DNA from: Candidatus Woesearchaeota archaeon | Lineage (GTDB): Archaea > Nanobdellota > Nanobdellia > Woesearchaeales > JAZDKJ01 | Assembly (NCBI GenBank): GCA_043803105.1 | Contig: JAZDKJ010000006.1 | Location: 64,001-128,000 of the forward strand | Direction: 5' to 3' | Length of the DNA stretch: 64,000 nucleotides | Shown here: positions 18,001 to 21,000 of the stretch, piece by piece | How positions within the stretch are numbered: the stretch's first letter is position 1 | Layout: each line of letters starts with the position of its first letter | Program-made: the position numbers

Positions 18001-21000
18001 ATCTTGCGACTGGCAGCATGTTCTTTGTTGCTTTCTTTCTGATTTCCGGAAGCTTGCTGATGGTTTTCCTTGGAAAGATTCCTCAGTACCTCGCTACTTC
18101 GTGGAGGATGCGCGCAAGCAACCAGATGATTATATGTATTTTTTATGTTGTGACCTATATGAGGCACACGAGCAACCTCGAGAAAGCGATTGCCTTTGCT
18201 GCAGACCACCTTGCACCCCCGCTCTCTCTTGACCTAAAAAAGGTTCTCTGGGATGTGGAGACAGGCAAACGCGAGTCTGTTAAGGAGAGCCTTGAGACAT
18301 ATCTTGAGTCTTGGCGCAAGTGGAACCTTGAGTTCATCGAGGCCTTCCACCTGATTGAGTCATCACTCTACGAAGGCCTGGAGGAGCGAAGGCTTGCATT
18401 GCTCGATAAGAGCCTGGACGTAATCCTCGAAGAGACCTATGAGCGCATGATGCATTATGCGCAGAACTTGAAGAGCCCCATAACGATGCTTCACATGATG
18501 GGCATAATCCTTCCAATCCTTGGCCTTGTTATCCTCCCTCTTGTGGTTAGCTTTATGGAGAACGTGAAATGGTACCATATTGCCACCCTTTACAACATTG
18601 TCCTGCCGATATCTGTTTATTATCTTGGCAAGACCATCCTTTCGACAAGACCTACAGGCTACGGTGACACTGATATCGCTGAAGAGAATCCTGAACTAAA
18701 GAAGTACCGCAACATCGTGGTCAATTTTTTCGGTGCTGAGATCCAGATAAACCCTCTGCCTGTCTCTGTCTTCATAGGTGCTGTCCTCTTTTTCATAGGT
18801 ATAAGCCCCCTCGTGATTCATTTTCTTAGCCCTAGCTTTGACATGCAGATAGTCGAAGGCGTTGAACTTATTGGTTATAGGGAATCTGTCACGACCCCTG
18901 GCTTGATTCTTGGTCCTTATGGCATGGGTGCTGCTGTCTTGAGCCTATTCGTTCCCTTGAGTTTTGGCATAGGTGTAGGCCTTTATTATAGGTTGCGCTC
19001 GCAGAATGTGATAAAGATTCGTGAGCAGGCAAAGCAGCTTGAGGACGAGTTTGCCTCAGCCCTTTTCCAGTTAGGCAACAGGCTTGGAGACAACATTCCT
19101 GCTGAGATCGCCTTTGGTCGTGTAAGCGATGTGATGGAGGGCACAATCTCAGGCAATTTCTTCAGGACTATAAATACCAACATAAAGAAGCTGGGCATGA
19201 GCGTGCCGGACGCAATCTTTGATTCAAAGGTAGGTGCCCTTGTTTATTTTCCAAGTAATGTCATTGCAAGCTCGATGAAGGTTCTCATCCAAAGCATCAA
19301 GAAAGGACCTGTTATTGCAGCCCAGGCCCTGCTTAACATCTCTCGTTACATCAAGGAAATTCACAGGGTGAATGAGCGCTTGAAAGACCTCATGGCTGAC
19401 ATTATCTCATCAATGAAATCCCAGATTAGCTTTCTCACGCCAGTTATCTCTGGCATTGTTATTGGAATCACTTCCATGATAACAAATATAATCGGTAAGC
19501 TCGGCTCCCAGATGAAGACCCTTGGAGGCGAGGCTGGTGGTACTGCTTCAAGCATGGCTGACTTCTTTGGTGATGGGCTTCCAACCTATTATTTCCAGAT
19601 AGTTGTCGGTGTATATGTTGTGCAGATTATTTTCATCCTGACGATTCTTGCAAATGGCATCGAGAATGGCGAGGACAAGCTCCAGGAGCGCTACATGCTC
19701 GGAGTCAATCTGATTAGGAGCACTATCATTTATTGTTTTGTCGCAATGTTTGTCATGGTCGTTTTCAACATCATAGCGATGAACATAATGGGCGTCAATG
19801 TCCCCACGCAGTAAATCGCGATGTGCTAAAAGAATCAATGGGTCTGCCCGGATTTTCGTTCAGCTCTCTCGAACCGGGGACCTTCACCGTGTGAAGGTGA
19901 CGTCATAGCCACTAGACTACAGACCCGTATACTTTGTTGTTTCACATGCCTATTTTAATTTATTGGATTCTCAAACTGTCAAGATGAGGCAGCTAAGGAG
20001 CAGGTGTGCTAGAAGTCTGTTTTGCCTCAAGTTTCTGCTTTACTTTGTTTGCATACTTGTGGGCAAGTGCCAGCGGCAGAGGTACTTTGTAGGGTTCTTC
20101 TGCGAACTTTTTGACGATCTCGATGCTTGTCTTCAGGCTGATGAGGTGTCCTGGTGAGACCACAACAGGATTGCCGGTTTCCTTTATTTTAACCTTCTTT
20201 CCAACAGCTTCCTTGTCAATATATATAGAGTCGCCCCGTACTATTCCGTATAGGGGTTTTTTCGCTACTCCTATTGTTGGCTTGTTCAAAAGGAGTCCTA
20301 TGTGTGATGCAAGTCCTATTCTTCGCGGATGCAAAATCCCGTTCCCTTTTACTATAAGTATGTCTGGTTTGTTGTTCAGCTTGTTGTATGCCTCGATTAT
20401 TGCCGGCGACTCCCTGTACGCCAGGAATCCTGCCACATACGGGATTTTTGTCTCAAGCACAGCGTATTTTTTCTCCACTATTGCCATTGTCTTGGCGTCT
20501 ATAACCACAATTCCACAAATTATCTGGTTGCCCATCGCTAATTGGTCCACACCAGCTATGGTTGAATAACCTTCAAACTCATCCTTTAGAATTATCTTTA
20601 GGGCGAGCTTTTTTTGCTCTTCCTTTAGCTTTTCCAGGTTTAGATCCACCACTTTTGATTAACCCCGTCAATTCCGAATGAAGCTGTGCGATTCTGTTCG
20701 CAGCCATAATCCCGAATTTCTTTTTAAAGCTTTCTAGTGTGCTCGAGAGAGTAATACATTCGTCGTTTTGGCCTACCAGTTTGTCAGCATAACAGACAAT
20801 CTTTTCCTCTGTTGTTAACGGCAAGAAGTCTTTTCTTGGCAGCCTAAGCCTTCGTTCGATTATGTCCTCTTTGCGCAGTCCTCCCCCTAAGTGCCTTTCT
20901 GCAATCCTCGCCAGACTGCAGTGCCCTTCAGCCCTCAGTATTTTTGCTCCTTCGATTCCGTGTCTTTCTGAATCTTTCCATGGTGGGCACTTGTATCTTC

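Follow-up and report, generated by a model that had tools for sequence, protein, structure and literature searches.

The window, i.e., the whole 64,000-nt stretch of DNA analysed (positions 64,001 to 128,000 of contig JAZDKJ010000006.1 of a Candidatus Woesearchaeota archaeon), contains a tRNA-Val(CAC) gene in a 178-nt gap between the ORFs 17673-19814 (+) and 19993-20652 (-). The gene is interrupted in its T loop by a short intron. The features of the locus, in window coordinates, are as follows.

19839-19926 (-): tRNA-Val(CAC) gene, 88 nt genomic, 73 nt once the intron is removed
19868..19926 (-): 5' exon, tRNA positions 1-59 (sequence reading and alignment to relatives, whose BLAST matches end at the boundary, query 11-68/69)
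19853..19867 (-): intron of 15 nt that separates positions 59 and 60 (orthologue gap and bulge-helix-bulge geometry)
19839..19852 (-): 3' exon, positions 60-73, comprising U60, the T-stem 3' strand, the acceptor 3' strand, and the discriminator A (sequence reading, alignment)
19870..19873 (-): T-loop nucleotides 54-57 (UUCG), exon strand of the 4-bp central helix (4/4 pairs with the intron CGAA; present in the minimum-free-energy fold)
19855..19858 (-): intron CGAA, which forms the second strand of the central helix; after it comes the 3-nt bulge AA/U with the 3' splice site (pairing and fold)
19874..19878 (-): T-stem 5' strand (49-53), which forms the motif's outer helix with 19847-19851 (5/5 pairs)
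19847..19851 (-): T-stem 3' strand, positions 61-65 (pairing and fold)
19950..19959 (-): box rich in A and T, 24-33 nt upstream of position 1 and perhaps an archaeal TATA box (judged by eye only)

The tRNA-Val(CAC) gene and its splice motif

The cloverleaf of tRNA-Val(CAC) has an acceptor stem with 7/7 pairs, a T stem with 5/5 pairs, a D arm with A14 and G18G19, the anticodon CAC, and the discriminator A. The genome-wide survey's note had placed the gene at 19840..19926; the end was correct, and the start left out the discriminator base at 19839. Its reading of a 15-nt intron at 59/60 agrees with the cloverleaf, the orthologue gap, and the motif geometry. Using our own bit-scored parser, the locus reached 57.2 bits in total and 65 bits for the mature cloverleaf, compared with 59-65 bits for the intron-less Val genes of relatives. 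The genomic sequence was missed by ARAGORN, which called Val(cac) when the 59/60 insert was deleted. The unspliced gene scored 24.4 bits with Infernal RF00005, below the gathering score of 29 and with the T arm skipped, as is expected because the gene is interrupted. Alignment to four intron-less orthologues from four other families opened one 15-column gap exactly at 59/60, and the spliced T loop was identical in two of the four.

The central helix (4/4), the T stem (5/5), and the 3-nt 3' bulge were reproduced by the minimum-free-energy fold of the T arm. The whole 88-nt precursor folded with z = -3.19 (equalled by 0/200 shuffles); the 32-nt T-arm fold was not unusually stable (z = -0.91; equalled by 36/200 shuffles). 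The strict hBHBh' arrangement of two closed 3-nt bulges was not found at Val(CAC), where only the 3' bulge (AAU) is closed and the 5' cleavage site lies, in the predicted fold, in an 11-nt loop without an inner helix. As modelled, the motif fits the relaxed hBH or bulge-helix-loop class and not the strict one.

In the proposed pathway, the 5-bp T stem would form the outer helix of the precursor motif, and T-loop nucleotides 54-57 would pair with YGAA (CGAA in Val(CAC)) near the 3' end of the intron to give the 4-bp central helix. One cleavage site would then be made up of nucleotides 58 and 59 plus the first intron base, and the other of the last two intron bases plus U60. Both sites would be cut by the single EndA, and the halves joined by RtcB into a normal UUCGAGU T loop. 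Tying these data together, the locus is very probably a functional tRNA gene, the transcript of which carries a 15-nt splicing-endonuclease intron at T-loop position 59/60; its excision is what we infer from this anatomy.

The genome-wide tRNA set

For the whole genome, ARAGORN reported 4 tRNA genes (9 with the intron option), and Infernal reported 6 at E<=0.001 from 89 scored candidates, as had been noted in the survey (4-6). When a permissive splice search tolerated as many as four relaxed introns of 10-300 nt, with ARAGORN as judge, sequences were accepted at 160 places. Because of this number, the search was dropped as a criterion and replaced by a control-calibrated, intron-penalised bit score; acceptance by ARAGORN after in silico splicing, which the survey had obtained for the 43 loci of its scans and parser, is likewise weak evidence alone. 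The parser charged 14.4 bits per intron and was calibrated on the reversed genome; exon homology to G037 and G005, two relatives poor in introns, served as a supplement.

The scan yielded 29 loci at >=40 bits and none in the reversed control, the maximum of which was 38.2 bits. In a strong-anchor run, 33 loci reached >=40 bits and the control 32.2 at most, and a UCCRA T-loop search added 3 loci (control maximum 31.8). The union of methods comprised 40 tRNA loci, of which 37 are interrupted and 29 carry a 59/60 intron of 15-150 nt. Two extra loci were placed by exon homology only, giving 40-42 in total and 19 of 20 amino acids. The survey's note had counted at least 46 tRNA genes for all 20 amino acids, 43 of them interrupted and 32 with a 59/60 intron, and about 92 introns. 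The prevalence of interrupted genes and the rank of 59/60 as the commonest site both stand; the gene totals came out lower, tRNA-Asn was not recovered, and the exact number of introns was not reproduced. Its six other example loci were found again at their coordinates, namely C10:94178-94264 Gly(TCC), C13:364-248 Gly(CCC), C8:8229-8126 Val(TAC), C12:74507-74683 His, C7:13023-13289 Pro(GGG, with a 150-nt T-loop intron), and C6:521612-521332 Leu(TAA).

The 29 high-confidence genes contain 48 introns, 20 at 59/60 and 15 at 37/38, which corresponds to a density of at least 1.66 per gene. By the counts in the 40 loci, the 59/60 arrangement interrupts about 70% of tRNA genes and about 90% have at least one intron, so ARAGORN and Infernal see almost no tRNAs. 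The mature sequences keep identity features, including G3:U70 in both Ala tRNAs, an initiator-like 5' end, long variable arms with G73 in Ser tRNAs, and A73 in Leu tRNAs. The general parser gave no tRNA-Asn(GUU), and an anticodon-restricted relaxed search reached at most 19 bits, far under the noise level; among the tRNAs detected in the two relatives that served for exon homology, Asn was likewise absent. Genome-wide scans did not place Thr(GGU), Ser(UGA), or Arg(CCG). The survey had found neither Arg(CCG) nor Thr(TGT); for the latter, a candidate Thr(UGU) was detected at C6:33535-33644 in the strong-anchor run. The genome is 96.5% complete; therefore, a few tRNA genes may be unassembled.

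The anatomy of Val(CAC) could be right and the genome-wide totals (46 genes, about 92 introns) still be partly an artefact of search freedom and tRNA-like noise. Such an explanation is in line with the 160 permissively accepted places, with the 38.2 bits reached by parses of the reversed genome, with the recovery of 40-42 loci and not 46, and with the genes having three or four introns, several of which allow competing parses with different anticodons. However, the intron-charged score separates the genome from the control (29 vs. 0 at >=40 bits), as does the mature-cloverleaf score (30 vs. 0 at >=60 bits), and at least 12 loci need one intron or none. In addition, multi-intron loci are backed independently by exon homology: the tRNAs of G037 and G005 match this genome (G000) as colinear exon blocks broken at the predicted sites, among them Leu(UAA), Lys(UUU), Cys, Gly(GCC), and Pro(UGG). 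An artefactual origin of the totals was accordingly judged unlikely.

Introns at position 59/60 and their distribution

In the 29 introns at 59/60, the central helix between T-loop nucleotides 54-57 and the intron was 4/4 in 19 and 3/4 in 10, nearly the same as the 20 and 9 of the survey, whose description of a cleavage motif built by the T stem and a covarying UUCR:YGAA helix is borne out. The helix covaries at two positions, with UUCG:CGAA in 8 introns, UUCA:UGAA in 6, UCCG:CGGA in 2, and UCCA:UGGA in 1. R57 pairs with Y, and U55/C55 with A/G; no mixed R57/Y pairs occurred among the 4/4 helices of these four types. Part of this set was preselected for a helix of >=3/4. A helix-free scan, which provides an unselected subset, gave a central helix of >=3/4 in 20/20 distinct 59/60 introns, 13 of them 4/4 (chance about 2%). 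By our geometry, the inner helix has >=2 bp in 13/29 introns and 0-1 bp in 16/29, in agreement with the earlier remark that some motifs are relaxed. In the 150-nt intron of Pro(GGG), it has 11 bp.

Related introns were found in different genes: those of Gly(CCC) and Ile(GAU) are 87.5% identical over 40 nt, and those of Pro(GGG) and Phe(GAA) 96% over 47 nt. This common sequence suggests that introns were copied from one tRNA gene to another at the 59/60 site. Half of the splice motif comes from the T arm, which is nearly invariant among tRNAs, so that one and the same intron may be spliceable in almost any tRNA.

Infernal tRNA counts ranged from 0 to 41 across 40 relatives, the same values as in the survey. 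Introns at 59/60 of other lengths were present in 10/45 tRNA genes in loci of 29 relatives. Between congeneric genomes, the length of the insert differs and its position is kept (32 vs. 12 nt in Val(UAC); 22 vs. 151 nt in Gly(GCC)). A short-intron pattern matched 169 times and its reversed form 39 times. The number of genomes with any match (36/41) was uninformative, as the reversed form also matches in 24/41; for this reason, genomes above the control maximum were counted, and these numbered 15/41, fewer than the 31/41 for which the survey had reported the 59/60 pattern.

The interrupted genes might also be regarded as decaying pseudogenes in an organism, probably a host-dependent member of DPANN, that uses few intact or host-derived tRNAs. 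An episymbiotic life with a reduced genome is common among DPANN archaea, and three or four intron-less tRNAs do exist here. These intact genes, however, cover only Ala, Thr, and Val, whereas about 40 genes keep four stems, conserved nucleotides, and identity elements. Their inserts lie at defined positions with a covarying helix, vary in length among congeneric genomes at a constant position, and are accompanied by retained splicing enzymes, which makes decay very improbable. Equally improbable is a mature tRNA that retains the insert as an enlarged T loop, since a T loop of 22 to 157 nt would destroy the T-loop/D-loop interaction, the inserts contain the endonuclease motif at an exact 3-nt spacing from the T stem, and insert-free orthologues are otherwise colinear.

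Splicing enzymes and comparison with known systems

EndA, RtcB, and RNase P RNA were found in the genome, as the survey had stated. EndA is represented by one PF01974 match (96.8 bits), the sole match at E<=0.1 in the genome, in an ORF of 203 aa. A paralogue was not found in the genome using tblastn, all other matches having E >=2.5. In phmmer, EndA aligns without a gap to the M. jannaschii enzyme (1A79) over residues 43-203, and it lacks the 6 extra residues before the catalytic His of the N. equitans alpha subunit and the 6 after it in ARMAN-2. The insert comparison refers to gaps relative to M. jannaschii, N. equitans, and ARMAN-2; the source text does not specify where the published L3 loop lies. 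An enzyme of the alpha4 type is expected to be encoded by one gene of about 180 aa that joins an N-terminal domain to a catalytic one, without a gene for another subunit, and the single 203-aa ORF fits this. By its sequence, the sole EndA is thus classified as alpha4-like, as in the survey's note. RtcB is represented by one PF01139 match (550 bits); its gene contains an in-frame TAG and may need the same splicing as the tRNAs, with a putative mRNA intron at C6:11275-11304 whose removal would restore the GYG motif. No feature of EndA separated intron-rich from intron-poor relatives; across the 30 sequences, the catalytic region is colinear. How closely a relative's enzyme resembles this EndA in percent identity was not significantly related to the Infernal tRNA count (rho = -0.27, p = 0.15; 30 sequences, from related genomes that are not independent).

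Introns at 59/60 are known from ARMAN-2 (Candidatus Micrarchaeum acidiphilum), and its pre-tRNA-Cys was cleaved in vitro (Fujishima et al. 2011, PMC3239211); the survey had mentioned single 59/60 introns elsewhere. Both archaea belong to DPANN and have many disrupted tRNA genes (56% in ARMAN-2), and they share the position, the short length (13 nt in ARMAN-2, 15 nt in Val(CAC)), and the relaxed hBH or bulge-helix-loop form. The EndA of ARMAN-2 is of the three-unit epsilon2 type and has a specificity loop, in contrast to one alpha4-like gene without an apparent insert, and here 59/60 is the commonest site (29/40 genes) and introns are present in about 90% of the tRNA genes. In PMC5829648, cleavage of relaxed motifs is tied to inserted EndA loops, and disrupted tRNA sets in DPANN archaea with an alpha4 EndA are anticipated.

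Thermoproteales resemble this genome in having up to three or more bulge-helix-bulge introns per gene, sites in the D arm, the anticodon arm, and the T arm, related introns in different genes that suggest copying, and a failure of standard finders. Intron transposition has been reported in that order (Fujishima et al. 2010, as cited in PMC3239211), and Pyrobaculum calidifontis is listed with 71 introns in 46 tRNA genes (tRNAscan-SE 2.0 paper, PMC8450103). The EndA of Thermoproteales is a heterotetrameric (alpha-beta)2 enzyme with the crenarchaeal loop, unlike that found here, and the density in P. calidifontis is 1.54 per gene vs. at least 1.66 in the 29 high-confidence genes, in which 59/60 accounts for 20/48 and 37/38 for 15/48 introns. 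Asgard archaea are similar to this genome in that there are about two intervening sequences per gene at splice-motif sites, many are missed by annotation software, and the presence of EndA does not explain which genomes gather introns. They belong to another superphylum, those of their introns that escape annotation lie mostly in the D arm, and the study text reports no general sign of between-gene copying, whereas related introns occur here; in a term search of that text, neither DPANN nor the T loop came up.

The canonical 37/38 intron is built alike, with a 5-bp stem as outer helix, a 7-nt loop with nucleotides 1-4 in a 4-bp central helix, a cut after loop nucleotide 6, and loop nucleotide 7 in the 3' bulge. 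It differs in lying in the anticodon arm and not the T arm, and in having the anticodon region as the exon half of the helix; because this half is the invariant UUCR at 59/60, one intron fits nearly all tRNAs. As 59/60 introns were already known from ARMAN-2, and heavy interruption from Thermoproteales and Asgard archaea, the genome is an extreme case of a known kind of archaeal intron.

The tRNA set is among the most intron-dense described, and published supplementary tables may already list introns of Woesearchaeota. In our locus set, the main intron site is the T loop, not the anticodon loop. Standard finders report 4-6 tRNAs in a genome that is about 96% complete and encodes at least 40, and the same detection problem affects many Woesearchaeales. 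The usual genome quality criterion is at least 18 tRNAs. Such genomes will fail it and may be misread as lacking translation capacity.

It is conceivable, though doubtful at present, that the 59/60 introns are a self-propagating family which takes the exon half of its splice site from the universally conserved T arm, could colonise nearly all tRNA genes of the lineage, and would be removed by a loop-less alpha4 EndA cutting relaxed bulge-helix-loop substrates, with rtcB needing the same splicing. If true, a loop-less EndA acting on relaxed substrates would contradict the current rule, by which an inserted loop is required for broad specificity, and a pathway in which rtcB itself requires splicing would need its own product in order to work. 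Introns related to one another across tRNA genes provide material on how archaeal tRNA introns spread, and the combination of a heavy intron load with a single alpha4-like EndA without apparent inserts makes the loop-insert model of specificity testable with one recombinant protein.

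The tRNA-Val(CAC) gene and its T-loop insert

The minus strand at window positions 19926 to 19839 was read as a tRNA gene with a single irregularity, located in the T loop:

19926-19839 (-), tRNA-Val(CAC): acceptor stem of 7 bp followed by U8; D arm with A14 and G18G19; anticodon stem of 5 bp and a loop with CAC (Val); variable region of 5 nt; T stem of 5 bp; discriminator A at 19839
19867-19853 (-), insert of 15 additional bases after UUCGAG, followed by U60, the T-stem 3' strand and the acceptor 3' strand

The coordinates in the genome-wide survey's note were correct except for the discriminator base (19839), which had been left out. 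The gene occupies a 178-nt gap with ORFs on both sides; by eye, an A/T-rich box was recognized 24-33 nt upstream of it and, downstream, a stretch rich in T. It was not called by ARAGORN on the genomic sequence, and Rfam at gathering thresholds gave zero matches across the whole 64-kb window. A permissive Infernal search scored the locus at 24.4 bits for RF00005, below the threshold of 29, and skipped the T arm.

Insert-free Val(CAC) genes were available from four relatives of four other families (G037, G005, G008, and G020). Their alignment with the gene of the genome under study (G000) shows a single clean 15-column gap at positions 59/60, and the T loop expected after splicing is that of two of the four. 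The insert has the geometry of an archaeal endonuclease substrate: the outer helix is the T stem, the central helix joins T-loop nt 54-57 (UUCG) to intron CGAA (4/4), the 3-nt bulge comprises the final two intron bases and U60, and the other cleavage site comprises nt 58, 59 and the first intron base. Both the orthologue gap and this geometry agree with the claimed 15-nt intron at 59/60. The arrangement is identical to that of the canonical 37/38 intron but is located in the T arm instead of the anticodon arm; each arm consists of a 5-bp stem and a 7-nt loop that is cut after loop position 6. The 5' site has no closing inner helix, and the motif therefore belongs to the relaxed hBH/bulge-helix-loop class rather than the strict one. 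For the 32-nt T arm, precisely this structure is predicted by RNAfold, at an ordinary energy (z = -0.91, matched by 36 of 200 shuffles); the whole 88-nt precursor has z = -3.19 (0 of 200 shuffles as good).

Recovery of the tRNA set

On the whole genome (1.56 Mb, 13 contigs), ARAGORN found 4 tRNA genes (9 with the intron option), and Infernal, which scored 89 candidates, placed 6 of them at E<=0.001, reproducing the low counts noted earlier (4 or 5, and 6, respectively). At E<=10, Infernal found 17, including the Val(CAC) locus. ARAGORN's sole call within the window, tRNA-Pro(tgg) at 28591-28668 (+), is probably false; its cloverleaf score by our scheme was 14 bits versus 53-69 for ARAGORN's other three, and no Infernal RF00005 match was obtained there even at E<=10.

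Scans were written independently of the earlier ones. Stage 1 required a T arm with G53, UUCR and a 5/5 stem, intact or split after nt 59 by 10-300 nt, together with U8 and at least 6/7 acceptor pairs; no splice motif was demanded. Once the gap was removed, 32 candidates at about 25 loci passed ARAGORN, versus 4 in the reversed genome. When further introns were freely permitted, spliced constructs were accepted at 160 places, so the acceptance of spliced loci reported in the note is not evidence by itself, and bit scoring of parses was adopted for this reason. Paired bases and conserved nucleotides were credited, and each intron was penalized by 14.4 bits, partly repaid by its central and inner helices. 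The reversed genome, run with identical code, served as the control.

Loci recovered in the real genome and in the reversed control
General parser, at least 40 bits: 29 real loci; 0 control
General parser, at least 36 bits: 33 real loci; 1 control (maximum 38.2)
Mature-cloverleaf score, at least 60 bits: 30 real loci; 0 control
Strong anchors with more freedom, at least 40 bits: 33 real loci; control maximum 32.2
UCCRA T loops: Met(CAU) 45.8, Trp(CCA) 42.7, Pro(CGG) 38.7 bits; control maximum 31.8

As an independent line, 40 tRNAs from each of the intron-poor relatives G037 and G005 were compared with the genome by BLAST. The matches form colinear exon blocks whose boundaries fall at the predicted sites: Pro(UGG), for instance, matches as 1-40, 41-58 and 59-75, and Lys(UUU) and Leu(UAA) match in three blocks each. 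Exon homology also revealed or confirmed Gly(GCC), Arg(CCU), Cys(GCA), an initiator-like Met, Ser(GGA), and Ala(GGC).

In total, 40 loci were obtained, 37 by the parsers (29 + 5 + 3) and three by homology with a split T arm; two additional loci have exon homology only. Interruptions were found in 37 of the 40, and 29 carry a 59/60 intron of 15-150 nt, so that the claimed totals (at least 46 genes, 43 interrupted, 32 with a 59/60 intron) were approached but not reached. All six example loci of the note were recovered in place. The tRNAs cover 19 amino acids rather than the claimed 20, tRNA-Asn not being found by our searches. At least 68 introns were listed, three loci contributing their T-loop intron only. 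The 29 highest-confidence genes contain 48 introns (1.66 per gene): 20 at 59/60, 15 at 37/38, 10 in the D-loop region, two at 29/30, and one in the variable arm. Identity features include G3:U70 in both Ala tRNAs, G73 and a long variable arm in Ser tRNAs, and A73 in Leu tRNAs.

Several loci of G000 (C4 to C12 denote its contigs; the window is C6:64001-128000) have unusual features:

C6:304225-304323 (+), Ser-type body (long variable arm, G73) with the Phe anticodon GAA in a 7-nt loop and a D arm resembling that of Ser(CGA)
C12:181423-181652, ordinary tRNA-Phe(GAA), listed for comparison
C6:303770-303841, Ala(CGC), intron-less
C12:123849-123921, Thr(CGU), intron-less
C6:33535-33644, possible Thr(UGU)
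C6:533517-533589 (+), Val(GAC), intron-less, with C instead of U at position 33
Downstream 3'-end repeats: C12:77140-77265, Leu(GAG); C6:449560-449650, Arg(UCG); C6:533560-533725, Val(GAC); C6:393990-394145, Pro(UGG); C10:3470-3650, Ile(GAU)

A Ser(UGA) gene was not found in G000. Ala(CGC) and Thr(CGU), which make up two of the three intron-less tRNAs, share with the possible Thr(UGU) the T loop UGCRACU and a D loop missing the GG pair; they may have a foreign origin or form a class of their own. In five genes, the last 13-19 nt (T-stem 3' strand, acceptor 3' strand, and discriminator) are directly repeated 46-100 nt downstream. These repeats may be traces of element integration into tRNA 3' ends; the T-loop intron is absent in three of the five genes.

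Helix covariation, relatedness and proposed spread of the 59/60 introns

The stage-1 rows (27), less five downstream 3'-end repeat copies, one doubtful match and one duplicate, gave 20 distinct 59/60 introns selected without regard to the helix. The central helix has at least 3/4 pairs in 20 of 20 and 4/4 in 13, compared with chance expectations of about 15% and 2%, respectively. Among all 29 introns the split is 19 (4/4) and 10 (3/4), nearly the 20 and 9 reported before. The claimed covariation of the UUCR:YGAA helix is borne out at two positions, with four compensating types (T loop:intron), namely UUCG:CGAA (8), UUCA:UGAA (6), UCCG:CGGA (2), and UCCA:UGGA (1), and no case of the opposite R57/Y partner among them. 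The inner helix reaches 2 bp or more (maximum 11 bp) in 13 of the 29 but not in the other 16. Three genes have C at T-loop position 55 (UCCRAAU), each with a compensating G (YGGA) in its 59/60 intron:

C8:119514-119662 (-), Met(CAU)
C10:102920-103092 (+), Trp(CCA)
C6:403674-403875 (-), Pro(CGG)

Introns at 59/60 of different tRNA genes resemble one another in sequence. Those of Gly(CCC) and Ile(GAU), each 46 nt and on different contigs, are 87.5% identical over 40 nt, and those of Pro(GGG) and Phe(GAA) 96% over 47 nt; the introns of Gln(CUG), Glu(UUC), Glu(CUC), and Leu(UAA) match mutually, and an AGCU-like motif opens many of them. Between G000 and its congener G001, the site is kept in the same genes whereas the intron is not (Val(UAC), 32 versus 12 nt; Gly(GCC), 22 versus 151 nt). 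These comparisons suggest that introns have been copied or replaced at a site compatible with almost every tRNA, since the invariant T loop supplies the exon half of the helix. Copying could proceed by recombination between T arms or by reverse splicing.

The 40 relatives belong to the same order, each to another family except G001. Their Infernal tRNA counts range from 0 to 41, as previously stated. At loci around Val genes in 29 relatives, the Val genes were mostly intact, and 10 of 45 tRNA genes (9 relatives) carry a 59/60 intron. A pattern aimed at short introns at 59/60 gave 169 matches in the 41 genomes versus 39 for the reversed pattern; at least five occur in 15 genomes, with at most four control matches in any genome. 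The claimed presence in 31 of 41 was not reproduced. These counts show a trait widespread but uneven within the order, with G000 at its heavy end. In some relatives, 59/60 introns contain an internal hairpin mimicking the T arm (AAGG-UUCAANC-CUUU), e.g., G012:C10:2735-2776, G012:C30:530-572, G040:C1:214830-214873, and G040:C11:12417-12459.

Splicing enzymes and comparison with known systems

EndA, RtcB and RNase P RNA are encoded in the genome, as the note had listed. EndA and its neighbor are divergent on contig C4 (extracted locus L001):

L001:1474-2085 (-), EndA, 203 aa, the single PF01974 match
L001:2199-3089 (+), RNase Z-like metallo-beta-lactamase ORF

No EndA paralogue was found in G000 by tblastn. 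Among solved structures, the protein is closest to the N. equitans catalytic subunit (E = 8e-40), followed by the M. jannaschii alpha4 enzyme (E = 1.5e-35); alignment with the latter is gap-free over residues 43-203, and the extra residues near the catalytic His seen in the N. equitans and ARMAN-2 enzymes are missing, in keeping with the single alpha4-like EndA proposed earlier. A match was present in 40 of 41 genomes, almost always single, and the catalytic region is colinear in 30 of 30 aligned sequences regardless of intron load. Homologues at 65-86% identity are in sequences labelled Candidatus Woesearchaeota or Nanoarchaeota. The Lys/Glu-rich N-terminal extension of the G000 EndA (about 30 residues) is variable or absent in relatives.

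The sole rtcB gene has an in-frame TAG within the conserved PDAHxGYGFPIGG motif, at an insert outside the window:

C6:11275-11304 (-) (L143:1376-1405 in the extracted rtcB locus), 30-nt insert of bulge-helix-bulge geometry (central helix 4/4, inner 10 bp, outer 2 bp)

Its removal restores the motif, a Tyr codon spanning the junction, which makes it a candidate mRNA intron within the tRNA ligase gene itself. A search of 41 genomes found a stop inside RtcB in G000 only. In RtcB of G001 (C198), G012 (C5), and G016 (C10), about 1.43-1.47 kb is inserted in frame at profile position ~50, splitting the protein but leaving one long frame (818-1006 aa); the insert looks like an intein.

In ARMAN-2, pre-tRNA-Cys has a 13-nt hBH intron at 59/60 that is cut in vitro by its own epsilon2 EndA, tRNA-Pro has 53/54 and 59/60 introns, and 56% of genes are disrupted (PMC3239211). 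The survey of Kaneta et al. (2018), which took in one Woesearchaeota genome, associated DPANN alpha4 EndAs with more gene disruption and related incomplete tRNA sets to unidentified disrupted genes (PMC5829648). Among the genomes of the tRNAscan-SE 2.0 paper, the highest load is 71 introns in 46 genes, and the overall figure is 0.21 introns per gene (PMC8450103). For some Asgard archaea, a 2026 preprint gives 2.2 intervening sequences per gene; neither DPANN nor the T loop came up when its text was searched by term. In mainly open literature, supplements aside, no published description of T-loop-dominated interruption in Woesearchaeota was found.

Both the observation and the interpretation of the genome-wide survey's note were right in substance, and the introns would be removed by splicing. 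The kind of intron itself is already known; new here are its extent, the dominance of the T-loop site, its occurrence together with a plain alpha4-like EndA, and the kinship of introns in different genes.
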